A DNA stretch of 32,000 bases from an uncultured archaeon (lineage in GTDB: Archaea > Asgardarchaeota > Thorarchaeia > Thorarchaeales > Thorarchaeaceae): positions 30,001-62,000 of the forward strand of contig CAYHAA010000010.1 in NCBI GenBank assembly GCA_964354495.1. Direction: 5' to 3'. Each line of letters starts with the position of its first letter. The stretch's first letter is position 1. The position numbers and the translations under genes were made by a program. The notes beneath the pieces were generated by a model that was not told where the DNA came from, searched no databases, and saw nothing but the letters and a program-made list of their open reading frames with translations. This document shows positions 1-18,791 of this stretch, one piece after another.

Positions 1-1499
1 TTCACGGAAGAGAGAGAGGAAGCTACAGGCACACCGAGGAATCGAGAAGGAAAATATCTGAAGGCCTGAAGGGAAAGAAACTGAGCCCAGAGCACCGAAG
101 GAAACTCTCTGAGGCGAATATGGGAAAGATGCACAATAGACATACTGAGGAGTCGAGAAGGAGGATCGCAGAGTCTCTGAAAGGGCATGAGGTACCAGAA
201 GAAACACGTAAGAAAATCTCTGAGACCTTACGGGGGAGAAAACTGACTGAGGAACATAAGCGAAAGGTATCAGAGTCTCTGAAAGGCAGGAAACGGGGTC
301 CGATGAGTGAAGAAACTAAGAAGAAGCTCTCTGAGGTCAAGACAGGTGTGAAGCTTGGACCACAATCTGAGGAATCAAGAAGAAAGAGATCTGAGGCTCA
401 GAAGGGGAGGAAATTCACAGACGAACATCGCAGAAAGCTCTCAGAATGGCAGCGAGGTAAGAGGCTGAGTGAAGAACACAGACGGAAGATTGGGGATGGA
501 CTAAGGGGCAAGAAGCGAGGGCCAATGAGCGAAACTCAGAAAGAGAAGATTTCGCAATCTCTCAGAGGAAGAAAAGGTCACCCCGTAAGCGAGGAAACCA
601 AGAGGAAACTCTCAGAGCTGGGAAAGGGGAGAAAACACTCAGATGAAACAAAAAGAAAACTATCGGAAATACAAAGAGGGAGAAGGAGGAAGCCGCACAG
701 TGAAGAAACAAGAATAAAGATATCCGAAGCAAACAAGGGAAAAAAACGGGGTCCGCCAAGTGAAGAAACTAAGAAGAAGAGATCTGAAGCTCTCAGAGGG
801 AGGAAACTGAGTGAGGAGCATAAGAAGAAAATCAGTGAAGCGAACAAGGGGAAGATGCCATCTCCACTCTCCGACGAGGGGCGAAGGAGAATATCTGAGG
901 CAAATAAGGGCAAGATTCTGACCGAAGAAGTCAAGCGGAAGATATCAGAAGCTCACAGAGGAAAGAAACACGGCCCACTAAGTGAGGAACACAGGAGGAA
1001 GATATCAGAGAGCAACAAGGGAGTCAGTAGACCTTCACCATCAGCAGAGCATAGGAAGAAGTTGTCTGAAGCAGGTAAACGACGACCTCCGATGTCCGAA
1101 CAAACAAGAAAAAGAATCTCGGATTCCAATAAGGGTCACAAAGTATCCCTTGAAACAAGAATGAGAATATCCCTTGCTCATGGAGGCGATGGCATCTATT
1201 ATTCTGAAGATGAAGACCTTAGGGATACACGCTACAGAAGAAAGCAATCATTAGAAGCGAAGAGAAGAGATGATTTCACCTGCCAAGAATGCGGCAGGAA
1301 ACCTGAGAATAGTATAGACGTTCAAGGCCACCACATAGTTCCTAGAAAAGAATGGTGGAGAATGGAGTATTACCCATTGGACTGGGTTGTGACACTATGT
1401 ACAGATTGCCACATTGTTAGTGATAAGCGGAAAGGAGTCATCAAATGGCCAAAGATGTCAGAAAACGCAAAGCAAACCAGAGTTGACGAGTTCAGCTAG
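1..1499 (+). CDS. NUMOD3-like repeat array fused to a C-terminal HNH endonuclease domain (5'-truncated by the window edge)
   Basis: The frame is open from base 3 (HGRERGSYRHTEESRRKISEGLKG...), so the Met at 120 is probably internal. There are 21 units of consensus (S/T)EE(H/T)xxK(I/L)SExx(K/R)G. The C-terminus has CQECG...GHHIVP...LCTDCH, the Zn-binding HNH pattern. Confidence 0.85.
   Translation, partial: HGRERGSYRHTEESRRKISEGLKGKKLSPEHRRKLSEANMGKMHNRHTEESRRRIAESLKGHEVPEETRKKISETLRGRKLTEEHKRKVSESLKGRKRGPMSEETKKKLSEVKTGVKLGPQSEESRRKRSEAQKGRKFTDEHRRKLSEWQRGKRLSEEHRRKIGDGLRGKKRGPMSETQKEKISQSLRGRKGHPVSEETKRKLSELGKGRKHSDETKRKLSEIQRGRRRKPHSEETRIKISEANKGKKRGPPSEETKKKRSEALRGRKLSEEHKKKISEANKGKMPSPLSDEGRRRISEANKGKILTEEVKRKISEAHRGKKHGPLSEEHRRKISESNKGVSRPSPSAEHRKKLSEAGKRRPPMSEQTRKRISDSNKGHKVSLETRMRISLAHGGDGIYYSEDEDLRDTRYRRKQSLEAKRRDDFTCQECGRKPENSIDVQGHHIVPRKEWWRMEYYPLDWVVTLCTDCHIVSDKRKGVIKWPKMSENAKQTRVDEFS
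291..779 (+). repeat. Near-exact 36-nt direct repeat within the NUMOD3 array (copies at 291-326 and 744-779)
   Basis: Both copies read aaacggggtccg[atg/cca]agtgaagaaactaagaagaag, 33 of 36 nt identical and 453 nt apart. Confidence 0.9.
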
Positions 1500-1592: not shown

Positions 1593-2171
1593 ATGAATAT
1601 GAATAAAGCAGATATTTGGGCGCTTCTTGAGCGGTTCAGAAGATCGGAATTCTACACTGTTGTTTTGAATGAAGCATATCTTGCGAGATATGCTGGAATA
1701 CATCTTGGTTCTTATGTTGAAGAGCCAGACAATGAATTCTTGGAGGATCTGCGTGACCTTTTGATTGGCGGCTCGACCATTGGGGAGAAGAAAGTGAAAT
1801 CTTTTCTTGAGAATAACTCCGCAGACAAGATAAGATCAGCTTTTGAACTCTTTTTGGCTGAAGAAATAGAGCCAATAGGATTCATTGATACCTTTCTAAA
1901 ACTGAAAAACTGCGACCTCTACTTTGCGTCACAGCTGTTGGGTTTTGCATCGGAAGGGTCCTATATCACATATCATGATTCTGTATACGATGCGATGGTT
2001 GAACTATTCCCAGACTTTGAAGGAAATCCCGAACGTGTAAAAGATGGCGTTTCGTATATGTATTTCCAGATGGCATGTGACGTAATTATCCAGGCTTATC
2101 GATTTACATCAGTTCAGGAGTTGCATTGGTTTCTCTGGCATGGAAAAACGACTGACTGGAACTTCACATAG
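1593..2171 (+). CDS. Hypothetical alpha-helical protein, possibly with a degenerate HhH-type DNA-binding domain
   Basis: 192-aa ORF. The pattern IDTFLKLKNCDLYFASQLL...Y..F..AC...ELHWFLW resembles helical domains I recall from restriction-associated proteins, but the HhH GxG is absent. Confidence 0.6.
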   Translation: MNMNKADIWALLERFRRSEFYTVVLNEAYLARYAGIHLGSYVEEPDNEFLEDLRDLLIGGSTIGEKKVKSFLENNSADKIRSAFELFLAEEIEPIGFIDTFLKLKNCDLYFASQLLGFASEGSYITYHDSVYDAMVELFPDFEGNPERVKDGVSYMYFQMACDVIIQAYRFTSVQELHWFLWHGKTTDWNFT

Positions 2172-2219: not shown

Positions 2220-3032
2220 TCACTTCATTGTCTTGACCCATTCATACACGGGCTCGCATAGCTCTTTCATCCGCTGCTTCTCAGGGGTCATCCCAACGCT
2301 CGGTTTCCAGCCATCTGCAGGCTCGAACCAGAAGTCTGTGACAGTGCCTTGTCGTTCGTTCTTTGGTTTCCAGACAACCTTTACAGGCATCCCAAATTCA
2401 GCATCCCATGGGGTGAGTCCTCGGAGCTCGTTTGCGATCGCAGTCTTACAACCATCGACGATAACGTAAGCCAACACGAAGGGGAGTCTCTTGAGAGACG
2501 AACGCCCGCTCCACCCGGCAATCGTCCATGTATGCACAGTCCCGCGCTGTGCCAGTGGCTGCCAAATTGTGCGCTCCAAAGAACAATTGAGATTCCAACA
2601 ATTCACCCTCGGCGGGAAGAACTTGTCCCCGCACTTAGGACACTGCGTGCCCCAGAACTCGCCATCGATAAAGCCCTTACCGAGTTTTGAGACCTCGGCA
2701 TATTTCCAATAATACAATTGGTCGTAATGCAGAAAGACCTTAAACTGCTCCTCAGCCTTATCAAATTCGTAACCCATGAATCCGATACCGGTCTCCTTCA
2801 CATCGCCGCGGAACTTGTCAGGGTATGACTCATCGAACTTGACATCGTTGTGCCCGGGAATCTTGTGCAGCCTCTTATCCTGTACTCCCGTCACGGGCAT
2901 ATCCGTCGCTGGTTGTAGCGTCATATCCTTCGGCGGTTCAGCCTTCTGAATCTTCGCTGGTTCTGGTGTTTTGGCCGGAGCAGGTTTGATGGGCTTGCCC
3001 TTCGCTATCTTTGAACTCTCGTCCTTTGGCAT
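2220..3032 (-). CDS. DUF35-family Zn-ribbon/OB-fold protein (thiolase partner) with a Lys/Pro-rich N-terminal extension
   Basis: GTQCPKCGDKFFPPRVNCWNLNC Zn ribbon, RGTVHTWT, PFVLAYVIVDG and GMPVKVVW. It lies 2 nt downstream of the thiolase-like gene. Confidence 0.9.
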   Translation of the reverse strand: MPKDESSKIAKGKPIKPAPAKTPEPAKIQKAEPPKDMTLQPATDMPVTGVQDKRLHKIPGHNDVKFDESYPDKFRGDVKETGIGFMGYEFDKAEEQFKVFLHYDQLYYWKYAEVSKLGKGFIDGEFWGTQCPKCGDKFFPPRVNCWNLNCSLERTIWQPLAQRGTVHTWTIAGWSGRSSLKRLPFVLAYVIVDGCKTAIANELRGLTPWDAEFGMPVKVVWKPKNERQGTVTDFWFEPADGWKPSVGMTPEKQRMKELCEPVYEWVKTMK

Positions 3033-3034
3033 CT

Positions 3035-4312
3035 CTACGGCCTCCTCAGAATGAAGTTCGAGATACTGGTTCCAGTACCCGCGTGGCTGTTGACAAGACC
3101 AACGTTGGCGTCTTTGACATACGTCCTGGCACTCAGGTGCTTCTTGGGCGCAGTGTCATTCAGGTGATACATGCACTCGAGAGTGCTCATGATTCCGGTC
3201 GCACCCACAGGATGCCCATACCCCATCAGACCGCCACCAATGTTGGTTGGTACCTCACCATCGAGGAACGTCTGCTTCTCACGGACGAACTGCTTGATAT
3301 TGTCTCTATTGCACCAGTGGAGCGCCTTGTAGATCTGGGTCTCTGAGGAACTGAAGGCATCGTGGATCTCAGCGACATCAACCTCCTTGGCCGCCCTGTT
3401 GTATTCAATGCCAGCCATATCGTAGGCCATTTCACCAGAGTAGCGACAGGCTGCGAACTCGGTCATGTCCGGGTAGCCTTTGCCGTACTTCTCATTCCAA
3501 CCTGGAAAGTCAATACGGTCCCCAGCACGAATGGTGCAGCTACTGAGACCAGCACCAGCCATCTCAACGTATGTGTCAGGAGCGTGCTTCTTTGCCCACT
3601 CCTCGCTCGTGACAAGACAGAAGGCGCCACCACGGCTCATGAGACAGCAGTCCAGCCGCTTGAGGGGATAGCTGATGAGGCGACTCTCCATGACATCCTC
3701 GACTGTCAGTGTCTTCTTGTAGTAGGGGGACTTTGGGTTTGTGTAGTCGCTTCGATACCACTGGGACTTGGCATTGTCTGCAGCGTAGTTGCGGTTCTTC
3801 ATCGCAGCAAGTGCAAAGTCCTCCTCCGTTAGCCCGTTCTCTTTCATGAACTTGTGAGCCATCGCAGCGTAGTAGATAGGATAGATGCCTCCTGCAAGTG
3901 CCTCGTACCTCGTGTCGGAGGCAAGGGCGATGAACTCACTGCCCTGGGACTGAGTCACGTTATCCATCTCTTCCCATCCGTAGATACCCACCACATCGAA
4001 CATGCCCGATTTGATTGCCATGAATGCTCCATAGAGTGCAGAACCTCCCGTGTTCCCGCCATTCTCAATCCGAAAATGAGGAAGACCGACTAGCCCAAGG
4101 TGATCATGCACGACCCACTCAGGTGCAAGCTGCTTGCCGAAGTGGACTGAGAAATGTGAATAGATCATGAACTGCAGGTCCCTGAGAGAGAAGTCAGGGA
4201 TGTCATGTTGAGTTTCCACAATGCAGTTCGCAGCCATACCTTCAGGGGTAATGTGCATGGGATAATCGAAGGGAGTCGCCGCACCACCTGCGATACACAC
4301 TTTTCGACTCAT
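3035..4312 (-). CDS. Thiolase-superfamily protein (SCP2/archaeal type) lacking the nucleophilic Cys
   Basis: VAEIHDAFS and NIGGGLMGYGHPVGATG motifs are present. The usual ENACASG loop reads ENGGNTG. Confidence 0.88.
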   Translation of the reverse strand: MSRKVCIAGGAATPFDYPMHITPEGMAANCIVETQHDIPDFSLRDLQFMIYSHFSVHFGKQLAPEWVVHDHLGLVGLPHFRIENGGNTGGSALYGAFMAIKSGMFDVVGIYGWEEMDNVTQSQGSEFIALASDTRYEALAGGIYPIYYAAMAHKFMKENGLTEEDFALAAMKNRNYAADNAKSQWYRSDYTNPKSPYYKKTLTVEDVMESRLISYPLKRLDCCLMSRGGAFCLVTSEEWAKKHAPDTYVEMAGAGLSSCTIRAGDRIDFPGWNEKYGKGYPDMTEFAACRYSGEMAYDMAGIEYNRAAKEVDVAEIHDAFSSSETQIYKALHWCNRDNIKQFVREKQTFLDGEVPTNIGGGLMGYGHPVGATGIMSTLECMYHLNDTAPKKHLSARTYVKDANVGLVNSHAGTGTSISNFILRRP

Positions 4313-5161: not shown

Positions 5162-5375
5162 TTTGTGCGGCTTCAGATGTACCCCGACCCCGATAACTCT
5201 GGGTAAGAGAGCCAGTTAAATCTATCCCAAGACATGCATTGTGAACTACATACTATTGGCACATGTTCGGCCGTCTATGAAATGAATTAGCATCCGAAAA
5301 ACAGGCTCCAAGGCATGCAATTCCTACAAACAGAAAGAGCATGCTTGGATGATCAAACAAAGTATAGCGTGATGC

Positions 5376-6143
5376 TCACGCTGCTCTTTCACTAGCTCTG
5401 AGAATCGCCTCGACCTTGTTGAGAAGTGGCGTTATCTCAGGATTGTTGATGTTGATGATGACTGAGACAGAGAGGTCAGCAATCTCTTCCTTTCCCTTCT
5501 TATCTTTGTACGGCACGTCAACCTTGTAGTTGACCCGGTCGTTGATCTTCGCCCTGAATCCCTTCGCCTCTTGTTCAATATTATAGCAGTTCTTGATAGG
5601 GTACATGACGCCGTAGTTCACCATGGTCCCAGAGCCGCCCGCTATGGACTTTGCAATCTGGTCCATGATTGATTTGTTGTACATGTAGCTGCCAAGTTGA
5701 ATCATACTCAAGAACGCAAACATTCCACCCCCGCTTACCCGTGCAGCCTTCGCCTCTTGTACGCCGGTAGCAATGATTCGGTAGTTCGACACGAAGATGT
5801 TCCCAGCGATCTGCGATTTGCCAGTCTCGACCCAGCCATCCGTAATCACCGCAAACTCTTCGCCGGGCAGCTTGCAGAAGTTCTGGACAAAGAATTTCTC
5901 ATATTCAGACAGCTTGGCAGGGTTTCTAGCCCGCAACATCTTGTCGAATAGGATGTATGCCTTCTCCGAAAAGGCTTGAGGATCCACCATAATGGCATCC
6001 CTCATAGCCTCACCAAAAGGCTGGTATTGCGGGGAGTCAATCTTTCCGAAGGCATCCATCAACTTCTTACCTGCGTCTCCGGACTTTCCCTTCTTCATTG
6101 CCTCGACAACTTCAATCTTCAATTTTGCTAGGTCTACGCCCAT
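5376..6143 (-). CDS. Hypothetical protein with a PH/GRAM-like domain
   Basis: 255-aa ORF. LPGEEFAVITDGWVETGKSQIAGNIFVSNYRIIA matches the GRAM-type LPGE...G...(T/S)NYR pattern. Confidence 0.65.
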   Translation of the reverse strand: MGVDLAKLKIEVVEAMKKGKSGDAGKKLMDAFGKIDSPQYQPFGEAMRDAIMVDPQAFSEKAYILFDKMLRARNPAKLSEYEKFFVQNFCKLPGEEFAVITDGWVETGKSQIAGNIFVSNYRIIATGVQEAKAARVSGGGMFAFLSMIQLGSYMYNKSIMDQIAKSIAGGSGTMVNYGVMYPIKNCYNIEQEAKGFRAKINDRVNYKVDVPYKDKKGKEEIADLSVSVIININNPEITPLLNKVEAILRASERAA

Positions 6144-6490
6144 TCTAAAAACCTCGATATAGTCAGTGTTTAGGTTCTGAGAATAGACTTAAGGCTGAAA
6201 TATTAAGGATAGCTGGGACGTGTCTGATCGATGCTGTATCACGAAACTGTCTCTCTTTAGGATGGACACGGATTTCGACAACGCGATGGCATGGAATCAA
6301 GCTCTCTCTGTCAGACGCTGCTGCTCAGAAATGAGAGCCTTTGGGACTCGGTGCCATCAGGCAGACGAGTCAATGATAATGCAGGCAGCTGATGTTTTTG
6401 TCTGATTTCAGGCAAGACTATGGATAGGTCCCTGTGCGATGGCTTGCTCAAATCTGCATTATAGTGTGAAAAATGAGCAGGAACCAGTAC

Positions 6491-6591: not shown

Positions 6592-8847
6592 GTGACTGCA
6601 AGATTTCACGTGGAGAGGTCAGCCATTGGTCTGCTGATACTGCTACCTGCAGCATACCTGTTATATTTGAGCGAGCCTCCTTGGGACACACCAGAAGCAG
6701 CAACAGCGTACTTCTCGGTCCTTGCTCTACTCTGCGTGACCATGACAGCCAGCGCCGCAAACAGAAATCGAACAGATCGATCACCGTCAAACAACGCTCT
6801 TTTTGCTGCTACAGGGTATGCCTCGTTCGCATTCTCGGGTGCGGCAATACTGTATATTCTCACAGGAGAGAACCCAGCCATCCATGCGCAGACTGCTGGC
6901 GTGTTCTTGAATCTCTTTGCCATTGCAACCACCGGTGTCATAATGCTTCTCTATAGCATCCTGGACAGACTCATCAAGAGAGAGAATTCGATATGGGAAA
7001 GGAGACTGACTCCACTGGTGATTATTGCCGTTTCACTCTTCGTCTTCGCCATCATGATTGTGGTGGCCAGACTTCCATTGGATAATTCAGTCTTCTTGGC
7101 AGCAGGTTATTTCACCGGTGCTGTCGCTCTTTGTGTATATATCGCTGCCGCCGTTTTGACACTTCGAGGAAGACATTCAAGCACAGCAAATGACCCTATT
7201 CGATTGACTCTCTCCTTCATACTACTTGCAGGAGCCTCAATCAATCACATTCTGATCCTACCATCACCATCTTCGCAATGGATAATCTCCATTGTTCTCA
7301 TAGCGCTGGGCCTAGTCATTGCGAACATATCTATAAGCTATACATTCATGCTCGATATCGGCATAGGCGACAATTTTGCCTACGGACTAGCGATTGCGAC
7401 CAGTGTAATGGCAGCAGCTCCGTTCATCTTGGCGCACTTGATATCGATGCTTGTTGGGGCAGGAGCGACCTTTCCTGACATTGGTGCCACGGTGCTCATT
7501 CATATCGGGGGCTCGGTTCTAGCAGGACTCTCTGCATATGCACTGTACATGAAACCAAGGATTCGTTCATCACCCGGCCTCTTTGCGATCGTGTTCCTGC
7601 TCGCGTTTTGGGCTGTTTCCGAGATCGTCATCATCATCTCACATTTCTTGCCAGGCTATGGCTTCGAGATGGAAACTGGAGTGCCATACATCCTAGGTAG
7701 CATAGTGTCCTCGCTCATGCTAATCGTAGCAGTTCGTCGAGTCCTCAATCCCCCCAAGGACGAAACCGGCAGACTTCCACGACTCTATATCATAGGGCTC
7801 ATTGCTGCTCCTTTTCTCCTTCTTTTTGCAGAGCTTGTCAGACAATACGTATTCATCGGGATTCTAGGCGGGCCCGAACCCATTGTTGGTGCCGCGATGA
7901 TGCTCGGGCTTAGTCTCTTTTCGCTCTATGCCCTTTTGACCTTCATCTTGGTGCGTACCGGCGTAGCTGGGGGTAGATGGCAATTCGATTCTGTTGGAGC
8001 CGCACTTGCATCAGTCTGGGTCATTGTGGTCGTTCTCAAGGCCAATTTCGAGTATACAACTGCGGGATGGTGGATTGCAGAGGCAATCATGTTCCTCATG
8101 ACAATTGGTCTCTCTTTTCTACTTCTTCGCGTGTACCTGACAGAATCTGAGGAACTGGAGAAAGCTGGCCCGGTTGCGTCAGCTTATTCACACATGTTAT
8201 CTGGAAAAATAGTAAGTCATCAGAAGTCAGCAATCGACACGCTCTCTCAGATGACGATGGATACGCACACAGACGAACTCCGCCTTGACTCACTGGCAAA
8301 GACTCTCAACGAGGTTTCACGGGCGAATGACCTTGCAAAATACCTTCAGGTAGTAGTGTCCGGAAATAGATTCCATGAAGACGACCTAGAGTCTATTGAC
8401 GTCATCGATTCAATCACGACTGCCATGAACAGGTCTAGAGTCCCAGATTCTGTGCGAAGATTCAAGGAAGACACTCAAGAGCCAAGGACAAGACTGGTTC
8501 AGGCCAACAGTCTTCTCGTAGACCTCTTTTATTATCTCTTTGAGGGCATATCAAAGAGAATCGGAGCCATTGAGATGCTAGGAACAGGCATTCATGAGCA
8601 AGCCAGGCAGCCAGTGCCAGAGGTTGAGGTCACTTTTGACGTATTGGTCAGAACAGAGAAGATAGATCAAAGGCTGTCCCTCATCAGAAGGTACTTTGAG
8701 AGCTACTCTACGGATGTGATGGAATTCGCCTATTCAAGAAGACTGGTGGAGCTCTTTGGGGGAAATGTCGAGTGGCATACCGGGATTGCCTCCAGTCAGA
8801 ATCTTCTCATTACCGCCAAGATTACGCTGCAAGGCGTGTCGACATAG
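6592..8847 (+). CDS. Polytopic membrane protein (about 16 TM) with a degenerate histidine-kinase-like C-terminus
   Basis: GTG start and about 16 hydrophobic segments. The cytosolic tail has HisKA/HATPase-like remnants (AYSHMLSGKIVS, ANSLLVDLFYYLFEG, RRLVELFGGNV) with no H, N or G box residues. Confidence 0.7.
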   Translation: MTARFHVERSAIGLLILLPAAYLLYLSEPPWDTPEAATAYFSVLALLCVTMTASAANRNRTDRSPSNNALFAATGYASFAFSGAAILYILTGENPAIHAQTAGVFLNLFAIATTGVIMLLYSILDRLIKRENSIWERRLTPLVIIAVSLFVFAIMIVVARLPLDNSVFLAAGYFTGAVALCVYIAAAVLTLRGRHSSTANDPIRLTLSFILLAGASINHILILPSPSSQWIISIVLIALGLVIANISISYTFMLDIGIGDNFAYGLAIATSVMAAAPFILAHLISMLVGAGATFPDIGATVLIHIGGSVLAGLSAYALYMKPRIRSSPGLFAIVFLLAFWAVSEIVIIISHFLPGYGFEMETGVPYILGSIVSSLMLIVAVRRVLNPPKDETGRLPRLYIIGLIAAPFLLLFAELVRQYVFIGILGGPEPIVGAAMMLGLSLFSLYALLTFILVRTGVAGGRWQFDSVGAALASVWVIVVVLKANFEYTTAGWWIAEAIMFLMTIGLSFLLLRVYLTESEELEKAGPVASAYSHMLSGKIVSHQKSAIDTLSQMTMDTHTDELRLDSLAKTLNEVSRANDLAKYLQVVVSGNRFHEDDLESIDVIDSITTAMNRSRVPDSVRRFKEDTQEPRTRLVQANSLLVDLFYYLFEGISKRIGAIEMLGTGIHEQARQPVPEVEVTFDVLVRTEKIDQRLSLIRRYFESYSTDVMEFAYSRRLVELFGGNVEWHTGIASSQNLLITAKITLQGVST

Positions 8848-16681: not shown

Positions 16682-17212
16682 TCAGGAATCAGATTTCAAC
16701 CGCGTTTCGTCTAAGACCGGCCATGTACTTGACAAGTTTCGAAGCTCAAGTGTATCAAGATATGAATCCATTGCAAACATTGTCAGAGTCTTGTCAACGG
16801 CGGGAATCTCGCGTAGAAAATCGACGATGAAGTGATTCATTTCACCAATACTCTTTGCTCGAACCTTCAAGAGAACATCGTATTCGCCGCTCAACACATG
16901 AACACCCTGTACAAGAGGGTGACCAGCTATCTCCTGACAGAATTCTCTCTGGGAGAGTACGCTCTTGCGGCCCGGGACACGATATCTGATAGTCACAAGG
17001 ATGAAAGCAAGTGTCTCACGACCAAGATGTTCAGGAGACAGGATTGCAGTGTATCCTCTAATGACATTAGCATTCTGTAGCGCCTTGATTCTATCATGGA
17101 CTGTGGAGATCCCCTTTCCAACATCCTCTGCGATCTTTGCGATGCTGCGTTTGCTATCTTTCTGCAGGATAGCAAGTATCTCTAGGTCGGTCTTGTTCAA
17201 TCTTGGAATCAT
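16682..17212 (-). CDS. Lrp/AsnC-family transcriptional regulator
   Basis: LNKTDLEILAILQKDSKRSIAKIAEDVG...TVHDRIKAL...VIRGYT HTH domain, and a C-terminal LSGEYDVLLKV. Confidence 0.93.
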   Translation of the reverse strand: MIPRLNKTDLEILAILQKDSKRSIAKIAEDVGKGISTVHDRIKALQNANVIRGYTAILSPEHLGRETLAFILVTIRYRVPGRKSVLSQREFCQEIAGHPLVQGVHVLSGEYDVLLKVRAKSIGEMNHFIVDFLREIPAVDKTLTMFAMDSYLDTLELRNLSSTWPVLDETRLKSDS

Positions 17213-17230
17213 TTCTCTAGCCTTCTGTTA

Positions 17231-17323
17231 GATATTTCAGGATAAGTTGAGATTTGCCGAAATATTTCCGCTCATTATGCCGATTAGTCCGAAAATACTG
17301 AAATACTTTCCCATTTTTATGGG
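17231..17323. promoter_or_regulatory. Cluster of repeated AT-rich motifs in the divergent Lrp/glnA promoter region; candidate operators
   Basis: GATATTTCAG at 17231 (inverse copy), CCGAAATATTTCCG at 17257, CCGAAAATACT at 17289, TGAAATACT at 17299, and CCCAT-TTTT-ATGGG at 17310-17323. Confidence 0.45.
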
Positions 17324-17468
17324 CAAATCATATTACTTCATCCATTTATCATGCTTGTGAGAGAAGCACGTCGCTTCAGAACTAAAAGAAATGGAAACGC
17401 TTCTGGTTTCTATACCCTAAGGGTCTACATAGGGAGCCACGACTTCTCTCATATTCTCCTCAAGATCA

Positions 17469-18791
17469 GTGCACGAGAGGCATTCTTTGATGACAACAGA
17501 ACATAGAGAACCCGAATTCCTTAGACTACTGTTCACAGACATACTAGGACACACAAGAAGCATAGAAGTTGGCTACGACAGACTGGAGGAGATTATTGAG
17601 TCCGGAATCGTAATCGATGGCTCTTCAGTTCCTGGTTACGCTTCAGTCAATGAAAGCGATGTTCTTCTCCGCCCAAGTCGCGCCACCCCACTCATACAAC
17701 CATGGGACACGGCAGCCGCTTTCCTTCCATGTAGAGTTCATCAGGTTACGGGTGCACTCCATCCCGGAGATCCTAATAGCATCCTCATGAAGACCGTCAA
17801 GAAGGCATCAGAACAGGGACTTACACTTATGGTTGGAAGTGAGCTTGAGTTTTTCACGGTCTCGAAACAAGTTGATAATGGATTCATTCCATCTGATCAT
17901 GGAGGATACTTTTCGTCGCTGCCGCTCGATGCTGCTCTCGATCTAAGACGCGACATCACGAGGGCGCTGAATGCCGTAGGGATTCGTACCACGTCGCACC
18001 ATCACGAGGTGGCAGAGGGCCAGCAGGAAATAGGCCTTCAGTATGCGCCTGCAGAAACAGCTGCTGATAGTATTATGCTAGCACGGCTCATCATATCAGA
18101 GATGACATTCAGAAGAGGATTGATTGCCACGTTCATGCCCAAACCGTTCGCTCACCAGAATGGTTCTGGGATGCATTTGCATCAAAGCATTTGGGACCTC
18201 GATGAGAAACAGAACCTCTTCTCATCAGAAAGAAGCGGGGAAATCTCGACGCTCGCCATGCATTATGTTGCAGGTCTTATCGAACATGCAGACAGTCTCA
18301 TTGCTATCCTTGCCCCAACCATCAATTCATACAAGAGATTGGTCCCCGGCTTTGAAGCTCCAACTCGTATTGCATGGGGATACATGAATAGAAGTACAAT
18401 GGTCCGTGTACCTCATTTCAACGGATCGCTCAGTGCCGCAAGGATTGAACTTCGGTGCCCTGATGCAACCTCCTCTCCGCATCTTGCTCTCGCAGTGATG
18501 CTTGCTGCAGGACTTGATGGGATAGAACGCGGGATAGAGCCACCTAGCCCAACGAGCAAGGACCTATACAAATCGAGTGCATTCACCAAGTCCCTGCCTA
18601 GTTCATTGCAGGTTGCTGCATCTATCCTGAATGAAAGTCACATTATGAGGGAAACTCTCGGAGACCCTGTTGTGGATTTTATTGTTTCACAACGAACACA
18701 GGAATGGAAGGACTATGCTGAAACAACTGGAGACCCTGGCAGCTCAGAGATAACTGCATGGGAGATCAATCGCTACTTATTGTCCAACTAG
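17469..18791 (+). CDS. glnA: Glutamine synthetase type I
   Basis: DGSSV, ESD, ELEFF, HHEVAEGQQEI, FMPKP...NGSGMHLHQS, KRLVPGFEAP, NRSTMVRVP and RIELRCPD. An ATG at 17490 is an alternative start. Confidence 0.88.
   Translation: MHERHSLMTTEHREPEFLRLLFTDILGHTRSIEVGYDRLEEIIESGIVIDGSSVPGYASVNESDVLLRPSRATPLIQPWDTAAAFLPCRVHQVTGALHPGDPNSILMKTVKKASEQGLTLMVGSELEFFTVSKQVDNGFIPSDHGGYFSSLPLDAALDLRRDITRALNAVGIRTTSHHHEVAEGQQEIGLQYAPAETAADSIMLARLIISEMTFRRGLIATFMPKPFAHQNGSGMHLHQSIWDLDEKQNLFSSERSGEISTLAMHYVAGLIEHADSLIAILAPTINSYKRLVPGFEAPTRIAWGYMNRSTMVRVPHFNGSLSAARIELRCPDATSSPHLALAVMLAAGLDGIERGIEPPSPTSKDLYKSSAFTKSLPSSLQVAASILNESHIMRETLGDPVVDFIVSQRTQEWKDYAETTGDPGSSEITAWEINRYLLSN

Follow-up and report, generated by a model that had tools for sequence, protein, structure and literature searches.

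The first 1499 nt of the window (the whole stretch of DNA analysed, 32,000 nt in length) contain the 3′ part of a gene on the forward strand that encodes a 618-aa protein, in which an array of 21 NUMOD3 units is followed by an HNH nuclease domain. With a probability of roughly 0.55, we interpret this protein as the lineage-specific nuclease subunit of a two-gene module, formed together with the membrane ATPase encoded directly upstream, which would serve defence or DNA transfer. To our knowledge, the NUMOD3 helix has been described only from homing endonucleases, where one to three copies act as accessory DNA contacts. In the present protein the array makes up the entire 388-residue predicted DNA-binding domain, and its order and spacing appear to be kept by selection, which makes it well suited to testing if minor-groove helices can form a long ordered reader.

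Architecture of the NUMOD3-HNH protein

The gene was delimited from the ORF listing, its translation and its placement in the genome (G000:C10:29643-31499). It starts 358 nt upstream of the window, where the open frame spans positions 3-1499 (+) and the stop codon occupies 1497-1499. The initial annotation had noted correctly that the frame leaves the window at its 5′ edge and had allowed for additional repeats beyond it; the 120 codons upstream, however, encode only a charged helical region and not a single further NUMOD3 unit. The array itself (window 33..1196, +; residues 131-518) was delineated by Pfam, a unit table and the helices of the structural model. It matched PF07460 with 180.5 bits (cut-off 20.4; E 4.5e-54), and our own repeat HMM and delineation gave exactly 21 units, the number counted within the window in the initial annotation. 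Each unit comprises an 11-13-residue helix with the consensus S-E-E-t-R-R-K-I-S-E-A-x-K-G and a short or Gly/Pro linker, giving periods of 17 or 20 aa and, in one case, 18 aa; for both linker types our table agrees with the list in the initial annotation. The whole array carries a net charge of +60 and has a pI of 10.8. NUMOD3 corresponds to the minor-groove alpha-helix of I-TevI, I-HmuI and I-BmoI, for the first two of which co-crystals exist (PMC3664794, PMC2853131).

Among the searches made, this is the longest NUMOD3 array. The other top matches of a word-filtered search of 5.8 billion proteins contained at most 13 units by our repeat HMM, and relatives of this HNH clade contained 0-9, so that the earlier impression of a count far above the usual one was right. 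A search for larger arrays in proteins of 1083-3090 aa gave two weak matches, neither of them larger, which is weak evidence. AlphaFold2 placed a 10-13-residue helix in all 21 units with a pLDDT of only 45-70; in this model, for which the alignment was shallow and DNA was left out, the array appeared as separate short helices joined by low-confidence linkers (pTM 0.22), with no packed solenoid or superhelix. The full-length protein had no sequence match to PDB chains at E <= 1, its model retrieved nothing at E <= 0.001 in Foldseek, and no NCBIfam family covers the nuclease, for which PADLOC returned only weak homing-endonuclease and ZorE matches.

The putative HNH (beta-beta-alpha-metal) nuclease domain lies C-terminal to the repeats, as had been proposed (window 1218..1442, +; about residues 526-600), and was located by Pfam, alignment A3 and the model. 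It scored 23.0 bits against PF01844 (cut-off 21.4), marginally above the gathering score, so that both parts of the NUMOD3-HNH assignment are backed by profile matches. The motif residues read from the sequence are C547-x2-C550, H563-H564, C586-x2-C589 and H590; alignment A3 shows no variation at C547, C550, H563 and H564, and conservation extends to both CxxC pairs and to the catalytic and terminal His. The domain also features a clade-specific insert, W-W-R-x-E-Y-Y-P. The conserved HNH Asn, expected five residues before the second CxxC, is missing, its place being taken by W581 preceded by D580, and the whole clade carries Y-P-x-(D/E)-W at this site. This Asn is structural rather than catalytic in HNH domains, and nuclease activity is plausible here despite its loss. 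In the AlphaFold2 model, two strands and a helix were formed at 560-590 with a pLDDT of about 80, and Foldseek retrieved mostly HNH nucleases (Cas9 HNH, Gme HNH, Cap5, GVE2, McrA) together with a few other proteins, all at E >= 0.19 and none of them significant.

Conservation of the array and origin of the 36-nt near-repeat

Positional orthologues of the array were found in three other assemblies; their units follow the same order, and the 17/20-aa spacing is nearly unchanged. An orthologue of 20 units in the genome of another species has a spacing pattern identical over 19 spacings, two metagenome orthologues retain the unit order, and order and spacing persist at 59-78% identity, so that the comparison among relatives suggested in the initial annotation gave one and the same order in four lineages. 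The dN/dS ratio was 0.098 for the array and 0.086 for the HNH domain, both calculated against L036 only because dS was saturated for G015 and L037. Judged from these comparisons, the NUMOD3-HNH gene is selectively maintained, under purifying selection across lineages.

An assembly artefact had been named as a possible source of so long an array. The units are mutually only 60-80% identical at the DNA level and Tandem Repeats Finder did not call the array, from which we conclude that it is not an artefact; its presence in three further assemblies agrees with this. Three DNA unitigs from public sequencing runs of two sediment studies (151-255 nt, 98-100% identical) confirmed pieces of the array without spanning it, and no RNA run was listed among the runs containing this gene.

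The 36-nt near-repeat was recovered exactly as first described, with 33 of 36 positions identical between window 291..326 (+), at the junction of units 5/6, and window 744..779 (+), at the junction of units 13/14. Block expansion, the origin first proposed for it, was rejected: unit number and spacing are unchanged relative to the orthologues. Copy 291-326 matches its own G015 orthologue at 30 of 36 positions, whereas copy 744-779 matches its own orthologues at only 18/36 (G015) and 17/36 (L037). Given the unchanged unit number and spacing and the contrast of 18/36 with 30/36, the alignments indicate that the near-repeat is the product of gene conversion between two existing units, 291-326 being the donor-like and 744-779 the converted copy. 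The conversion is partly common to L036.

Orthologues of the NUMOD3-HNH gene occurred in 3 of the 28 genomes of the genus, many of which are only 71-93% complete; of 15 other genera, 3 contained distant relatives.

The upstream ATPase, gene X and the genomic setting

The start codon of the nuclease gene overlaps the stop codon of an upstream ATPase gene in a 4-nt ATGA, and at the G015 locus one gene follows the other without a gap. This presumably translational coupling, overlooked in the initial annotation, changes the most likely role of the nuclease. The 1028-aa ATPase belongs to the FtsK/HerA/VirB4 class (Pfam DUF87/HerA, E 2.1e-7), and eight homologues showed no variation in the residues of Walker A (G541, T543, G546, K547) and Walker B (E766, E767). 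Its model begins with four hydrophobic helices, predicted to span the membrane, also includes a middle domain of 380 aa and a helical bundle at the C-terminus, and matched the DndH C-domain, VirB4, HerA and TrwB in Foldseek at E 2e-6 to 1e-4. PADLOC gave a mad8-type match (E 3.4e-11) and weaker HerA-type ones, all too weak to name a system, and scores against curated HerA models were far below cut-off.

The pairing of this ATPase with a downstream partner is recurrent. About ten such pairs, with genes overlapping or at most 12 nt apart, were found in Thorarchaeota and other archaeal MAGs, and four of them, three being paralogous, are in this genome, where the C3 paralogue of the ATPase is 54% identical. 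The same arrangement was seen at L015, L016, L018, L019, L020, L021, L024 and L025. The usual partner is an acidic protein of 900-1900 aa; among the four partners scanned by Pfam, two contained LAGLIDADG_3 (E 2e-7 and 1e-8), two contained HTH repeats and one had no match. Since such large acidic proteins, with an HTH array and LAGLIDADG where Pfam recognized them, are the usual partners in sister lineages and in the three paralogous pairs, the 618-aa protein could represent a lineage-specific replacement of the partner body by NUMOD3-HNH. Only in two genomes, G000 and G015, can the NUMOD3-HNH form be seen next to the ATPase gene; the contigs of the remaining orthologues end inside the gene. 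A description of the Thorarchaeota ATPase with an HTH-LAGLIDADG partner was apparently absent from the literature that was searchable.

The charged region at the N-terminus (residues 1-130), of which only the end falls within the window (1..32, +), was defined by AlphaFold2 and alignments A1 and A4, and provides a further possible link to these partners. Two long helices, 6-45 and 53-92, were predicted, with a pLDDT of 67-85 over residues 21-80. Each carries an EF-x-x-M-K/R-E-L-V-x-x-V-type motif that also occurs in the partners of the paralogous ATPases, where the common form is M-T-x-E-G-x-E ... EF-R-x-x-M-R-E-L-V (A1, A4). The similarity is marginal in single BLASTP comparisons (E 0.003 and 0.64) and involves low-complexity charged sequence. 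A predicted complex of the ATPase (residues 490-1028) with the first 100 residues of the nuclease scored 0.18 against a mark of 0.32, which counts neither way.

Directly downstream of the nuclease, gene X (window 1593..2171, +; 192 aa) was recognized through synteny in G015, L036 and L037 and holds this position in four of the five orthologous loci whose downstream side is visible. At E <= 1e-20 it was found only in G000 and G015 among the 28 genus genomes, and neither Pfam nor NCBIfam nor PADLOC assigned it to a family; we regard it as a candidate for a third component of the module. Several fragments of its 3′ end lie upstream on the contig, and the surrounding region contains duplicated gene fragments, as a site prone to recombination might.

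The nuclease gene sits between protein-coding genes on a 110-kb archaeal chromosome contig. The initial annotation had proposed to look upstream for an intron, an intein or a mobile element. The gene is in no intron or intein, and no integrase or phage genes were present among the neighbours scanned; the upstream 30 kb, considered as a possible mobile element or defence island, contained no integrase, and PIN, HepT, methyltransferase, ABC, heliorhodopsin and surface-protein genes were found there. Tandem Repeats Finder returned nothing in the window and the upstream 10 kb, and thus no periodic DNA nearby that could be a target.

Within this HNH clade, the closest free-standing relatives, P0004 and P0131, are separated by a 3-nt gap from a different conserved upstream gene, so that the clade appears to recur as a downstream partner. 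P0004 is 46% identical and adjoins the same DUF35 gene, but its locus lacks gene X and has no ATPase upstream. The protein encoded upstream of P0131-type relatives, P0276, had no Pfam or PADLOC match; a TGT/DpdA-like identity is a lead only, from Atlas feature scores of 0.83-0.84.

Possible roles and comparison with known systems

In the proposed module, the N-terminal helical hairpin (residues about 6-92) would dock the nuclease on the ATPase. The 21 NUMOD3 helices would lie successively along the minor groove, as deduced from I-TevI, I-HmuI and I-BmoI, gripping tens of base pairs in a register set by the 17/20-aa linkers. The C-terminal HNH domain, with its catalytic and zinc residues intact, could then nick or cut the DNA so held, and the membrane motor could pump or process it, either in defence against incoming DNA or in a relaxase-like cutting and moving of DNA.

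A different history, which we regard as unlikely, is that of a free-standing homing endonuclease, a selfish gene inserted between the ATPase gene and gene X, which would recognize a long target near the DUF35-thiolase locus and spread by cutting empty alleles, its coupling to the ATPase being incidental. NUMOD3 together with HNH is the classic tool kit of such enzymes (PMC3664794), and the sole PADLOC match of the array, a weak one, was to a homing-endonuclease model. The sporadic presence in 3 of 28 genomes and among other genera would also be expected from a selfish element, the P0004 locus beside the same DUF35 gene fits as well, and the gene X fragments upstream could be remnants of repeated break-and-repair. 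On the other hand, neither an intron nor an intein surrounds the gene, its start codon overlaps the stop codon of the ATPase gene in G000 and the two genes abut in G015, and its extra 130-residue N-terminal region resembles, if marginally, the ATPase partners. The gene is also intact, with a dN/dS of about 0.1 and a unit order fixed down to 59% identity, and coupling to an upstream gene is seen even among P0004-type relatives.

The remaining alternatives concern what the array does on DNA. It is quite improbable, in our estimate, that it works as a TALE-like reader, in which positions 4, 11 and 12 and the linker would specify a few base pairs per unit and the 21 units one address. Positions 4 and 12 carry 2.1-2.3 bits among units (2.1-2.4 for positions 4, 11 and 12; four lineages only), and their identity is 70-75% between positional orthologues versus 16-29% between non-orthologous units; together with the linker-length pattern identical over 19 spacings, and with the base-specific contacts made by I-TevI H182, the residue just before the helix (PMC2853131), this would be expected of a code. 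Conserved unit identity could, however, come from shared ancestry and structural constraint; no tandem or periodic DNA nearby offers a target, AlphaFold2 predicts no packed superhelix, and the data on I-BmoI suggest that it can do without the equivalent histidines (PMC2853131). I-TevI and I-BmoI make few base-specific contacts through the NUMOD3 helix (PMC2853131), which also counts against a code. In the I-TevI co-crystal the helix itself contacts one phosphate and no base, and I-BmoI tolerates substitution of the equivalent histidines (PMC2853131). These data, the strongly basic array, its beads-on-a-string model and the displaced HNH Asn would all suit a sequence-independent DNA-coating or sliding protein with an inactive or non-specific HNH domain and an irrelevant unit order. 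We give this last reading very little weight, because unit order, positions 4 and 12 and the 17/20 linker pattern are kept in four lineages, which electrostatics does not need, because the conserved catalytic His, terminal His and CxxC pairs of the HNH domain go with a dN/dS of 0.086, and because a gene present in 3 of 28 genomes misfits a general chromatin protein.

A more far-reaching and, in our estimate, quite improbable form of the module would make the array an ordered minor-groove reading head for an address of ~60-100 bp, set by positions 4, 11 and 12, the pre-helix residue and the 17/20-aa spacing; the HNH domain would nick this site and the membrane motor would export, import or destroy the DNA. 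If true, this would amount to relaxase-free DNA choice and movement in Asgard archaea and might provide a new programmable DNA-binding scaffold. For the ATPase-coupled nuclease that we favour, the locus would show most clearly how the nuclease body has been swapped in a hitherto undescribed pair, multi-copy in Thorarchaeota, of a membrane motor ATPase and a DNA-binding nuclease. Such a pair could bear on DNA defence or exchange in Asgard archaea, the close relatives of eukaryotes, and the 618-aa protein is far more tractable for biochemistry than the usual partners of 900-1900 aa.

Among known systems, the GIY-YIG enzymes I-TevI and I-BmoI and the HNH enzyme I-HmuI share the short basic NUMOD3 helix, used in tandem and fused to a small nuclease. 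They combine one to three such helices with a zinc finger or HTH, whereas 21 helices and nothing else are found here; the array is N-terminal to HNH, the reverse of I-HmuI, and the gene resides in no intron or phage genome and is coupled to a membrane ATPase gene. Uncharacterised metagenomic NUMOD3-array nucleases, in which NUMOD3 is joined to GIY-YIG, HNH, Vsr or DUF559, likewise fuse long arrays to a nuclease, and in P0023, P0063, P0084 and P0121 the array precedes HNH as it does here. Their arrays do not exceed 13 units by our repeat HMM, none has the charged N-terminal helical region, and no ATPase coupling is known for them.

The Thorarchaeota ATPase/HTH-LAGLIDADG module is closer in arrangement, with the same ATPase family, the same gene overlap and a marginally similar N-terminal motif in the partner, and in both forms the partner is built from homing-endonuclease-type parts. 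The partner described here is shorter, lacks the long acidic region and has NUMOD3 and HNH in place of HTH and LAGLIDADG. Archaeal HerA-NurA and the bacterial defence systems Sir2-HerA and DUF4297-HerA (PDB 4d2i, 8wld, 8j4u, 9x1l) also place an ATPase beside a nuclease or other effector with which it works, and the ATPase core, of the hexameric FtsK/HerA-class type, is matched by Foldseek. The ATPases of these pairs are soluble, whereas the present one has four predicted membrane helices, the 380-aa middle domain and the C-terminal bundle, and their effector families are unrelated to NUMOD3-HNH. TALE proteins, finally, also lay long tandem helical units with few variable positions on DNA and are fused or fusable to a nuclease. 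Their 34-aa units form a superhelix that reads one base per unit in the major groove, in contrast to the NUMOD3 units of 17-20 aa, which have no predicted packing and no known code and would follow the minor groove.

An unusually long NUMOD3 array fused to an HNH nuclease

The gene enters the window, G000:C10:30001-62000, at its 5' edge and belongs to a 3.3-Mb source genome (G000) that is 97.7% complete. Its open reading frame and translation give a protein of 618 aa (plus strand; L002:9643-11499, i.e. G000:C10:29643-31499), whose ATG precedes the window by 358 nt and whose 3' part occupies positions 3-1499. Pfam identified the repeats as NUMOD3 (180.5 bits, E 4.5e-54) and the tail as HNH (23.0 bits against a cut-off of 21.4), as proposed in the initial annotation. 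Pattern matching, and an HMM trained on the units it picked out, delimit exactly 21 units (residues 131-518), all within the window, in agreement with the minimum of 21 counted before; successive units are 17 or 20 aa apart, in one case 18, and both the short linkers (KL, KF, RL, KH, IL) and the Gly/Pro linkers (KRGPM, KGHPV, RRKPH, MPSPL) are as first described. The array carries a net charge of +60 (pI 10.8). The frame does continue past the window edge, as had been noted, but the additional units suspected there do not exist: neither the pattern nor our own HMM found a NUMOD3 unit in the N-terminal 130 residues, a region of mixed charge. The initial observation is thus confirmed, and its interpretation is partly supported.

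From a shallow alignment of seven sequences, AlphaFold2 (mean pLDDT 55.6, pTM 0.22) placed the units in 21 separate helices of 10-13 residues joined by low-confidence linkers, and this model contained no packed solenoid. The N-terminal region was modelled as two long helices (6-45 and 53-92; pLDDT 67-85 over residues 21-80), and the HNH domain reached a pLDDT of about 80. Foldseek matches to the model were mostly HNH nucleases (Cas9 HNH, Gme nicking HNH, Cap5, GVE2 and McrA) with a few others, all weak (E 0.19 or worse). The HNH domain retains the CxxC pairs C547/C550 and C586/C589, H563-H564 and the terminal H590; W581, preceded by D580, occupies the canonical Asn position, and a W-W-R-x-E-Y-Y-P insert is conserved across the HNH clade.

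Long NUMOD3 arrays on nucleases are a catalogued, unstudied kind, because such arrays do occur among database matches; a literature search on NUMOD3 found no study of them. When 5.8 billion proteins were searched with a word filter, the best 120 matches were all NUMOD3 arrays, fused to GIY-YIG, HNH, Vsr, DUF559-type or other nuclease domains or to nothing, and our repeat HMM counted at most 13 units in them (median 8). No array of more than 21 units was found among longer proteins, which is weak evidence. When just the HNH tail was run exhaustively with HMMER against 1.84 billion representatives, the search returned only 8 proteins at E <= 1e-10, and its best 149 matches hold 0-9 NUMOD3 units. 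The G000 array and its orthologues are the longest NUMOD3 arrays in these searches.

Conservation of the array among relatives

Collapse or expansion of the array in short-read assembly is unlikely, since its units share only 60-80% DNA identity, Tandem Repeats Finder did not call it, and its longest near-exact internal repeat is 36 nt; moreover, contig C10 covers the whole gene with 30 kb to one side and about 80 kb to the other. Short-read assemblies do tend to break within this gene: the contigs of G015 and G024 (genomes of the same genus) and of L036 and L037 (metagenome contigs) all end inside it, and the pieces agree with each other. An assembly artefact, one of the doubts attached to the initial annotation, is therefore improbable.

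Repeat number and order, for which a comparison of related genomes had been suggested, proved to be conserved in spacing as well. The orthologue of G015 (59% identity, equivalent neighbourhood) has 20 units, which reproduce the spacing of G000 units 2-21 at 19 of 19 positions, while the units of L036 (78% identity) and L037 (69% identity) pair one-to-one with G000 units 5-21 and 7-21, respectively. The latter two retain signatures of single units, among them K-T-G-V-K-L-G-P in unit 6 and I-G-x-G-L in unit 9. Array and HNH domain are both under purifying selection, with dN/dS against L036 of 0.098 and 0.086 at a near-saturated dS of 1.1-1.6.

The internal DNA repeat (291-326 and 744-779) matches at 33 of 36 nt exactly as described; the block expansion read from it did not hold. 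Duplication lengthening the array is ruled out by unit count and spacing, which are the same in G000 and its orthologues. The first copy matches its own positional orthologue at 30/36, the second its counterparts at only 18/36 (G015) and 17/36 (L037), and the two copies of L036, the closest relative, are 28/36 alike. On these alignments, the pattern is the signature of a gene conversion in the lineage of G000 and L036, acting on two unit junctions that were already present.

Coupling to a membrane ATPase

The start codon of the NUMOD3-HNH gene overlaps the stop codon of an upstream 1028-aa gene as ATGA. Pfam places a DUF87/HerA ATPase core in the upstream product (E 2.1e-7), the Walker A and B residues of which are invariant, and its model shows four N-terminal hydrophobic helices, a poorly modelled alpha/beta middle domain and a C-terminal helical bundle. 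At E 2e-6 to 1e-4, Foldseek matched the core to the DndH C-domain, VirB4, TrwB and HerA, the last also as part of Sir2-HerA and HerA-NurA complexes; these matches do not separate the classes. G015 has the same gene order (TPR gene, ATPase, NUMOD3-HNH gene), and gene X, a DUF35 gene and a thiolase-like gene on a neighbouring contig.

With the ATPase as query, homologues turned up in further Thorarchaeota and in MAGs of uncultured archaea, as did three paralogues in G000. In every case with the downstream side visible, the next gene overlaps or lies no more than about 12 nt away. The usual partner encoded there is a protein of 900-1900 aa with an acidic low-complexity region; Pfam found HTH in two and LAGLIDADG_3 in two (E 2e-7, 1e-8) of four such partners, and no match in the partner of locus L015. 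The three paralogous G000 pairs, each a membrane ATPase with a giant acidic partner, are ATPase C3:126999-130073 with a LAGLIDADG_3 partner (E 1e-8) at about C3:123562-126993; C3:37289-40111 with C3:34543-37278; and C16:67448-70717, whose frame crosses a stretch of N, with a partner from C16:70893. The usual partners and the NUMOD3-HNH protein may share an N-terminal start, M-T-x-E-G-x-E ... R-R followed by 1-3 copies of EF-R-x-x-M-R-E-L-V-x-E-V (BLASTP marginal, E 0.003), and the model of the latter places one of its two copies on each long N-terminal helix. Distant homologues of the ATPase core (27-28% identity) also occur on two Planctomycetota MAG contigs (L022, L023; Phycisphaerae, Planctomycetales), where the proteins encoded downstream are ~195-aa basic, ~300-aa and 629-aa WD40-like, with no nuclease partner.

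Locus history and the proposed role of the protein

Orthologues of the NUMOD3-HNH gene occur in 3 of the 28 genomes of the genus; elsewhere in the family, only distant HNH relatives were found, in 3 of 15 genera (86 genomes, many incomplete). Gene X (1593-2171, plus strand, 192 aa) directly follows the nuclease gene in G000, G015, L036 and L037, and within the genus is present at E <= 1e-20 only in G000 and G015 (2/28). It matched no family in Pfam, NCBIfam or PADLOC; an Atlas feature search linked it to 190-210-aa hypothetical-protein clusters of bacteria and phages (score 0.95). Gene X might encode a third component or an immunity-type partner. The downstream context is not fixed across the genus, since in G024 (L013, contig C124) the HNH tail is followed instead by unrelated genes annotated without function (400-1098, minus; 1174-2106, plus). 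Beyond gene X, a conserved minus-strand pair, a DUF35-type OB-fold/zinc-ribbon gene (2220-3032) and a thiolase-like gene (3035-4312), adjoins the locus in G000, G015, L037 and L028.

Upstream on C10 (locus L027) lie five same-strand fragments of the gene X 3' end (299-469, 6186-6461, 7361-7489, 16947-17045, 18611-18694; 53-64% protein identity, some with stops), two of which each precede a copy of one 261-aa class-I methyltransferase gene (L027:6611-7393 and 17166-17948). The arrangement has the look of a segmental duplication, or of recombination recurring at this locus. The 30 kb upstream of the window also encode, all on the minus strand, a PIN-domain protein (2751-3152), a heliorhodopsin (5219-6040, Pfam E 9e-90) and a HepT-like ribonuclease (7874-8263); no integrase was seen there.

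The main rival reading is a free-standing homing endonuclease that landed at this locus, with which the sporadic distribution and the gene X scars agree. So does the locus of P0004 (11 units), which with P0131 is the nearest more distant relative: it adjoins a DUF35 gene 60% identical to that of the window. Both relatives have a different N-terminus (S-G-G-x-G-x-D-P-Y-Y), and their genes follow, after a 3-nt gap, the gene of a conserved ~560-aa protein of no family (L041:4318-5997, P0276; L028:2-370) with a C-x-C-x2-C motif, for which Atlas ranked TGT and DpdA clusters no higher than 13 and 18 (scores 0.83-0.84), a lead only. Homing would leave unexplained the start-stop coupling to the ATPase in two species (overlapping in G000, abutting in G015), the extra N-terminal region and the long-term maintenance of the gene. 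On the best-supported reading, the protein probably serves the ATPase-partner module as its nuclease subunit, and in one sub-lineage a NUMOD3-HNH cassette would have replaced the usual HTH/LAGLIDADG-type body. It could dock on the ATPase via its N-terminal hairpin, bind an extended minor groove through the array and cleave DNA with the HNH domain, in defence or DNA transfer.

Unit order is conserved, positions 4 and 12 hold unit-specific residues, and the linker pattern is fixed; seen in four lineages, these features are no more than suggestive of an ordered reader as opposed to a purely electrostatic coat. The variant described here joins an unusually long NUMOD3 array to an HNH nuclease that was probably taken on as partner by a membrane ATPase. 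At 618 aa, the protein makes an undescribed two-gene module of Asgard archaea tractable, and its array lends itself to testing whether a long ordered DNA reader can be built from NUMOD3 helices. In I-TevI, the NUMOD3 helix follows the minor groove and makes a single phosphate contact, base contacts coming from a His just before it; in I-BmoI, the corresponding histidines can be substituted (PMC2853131, PMC3664794).
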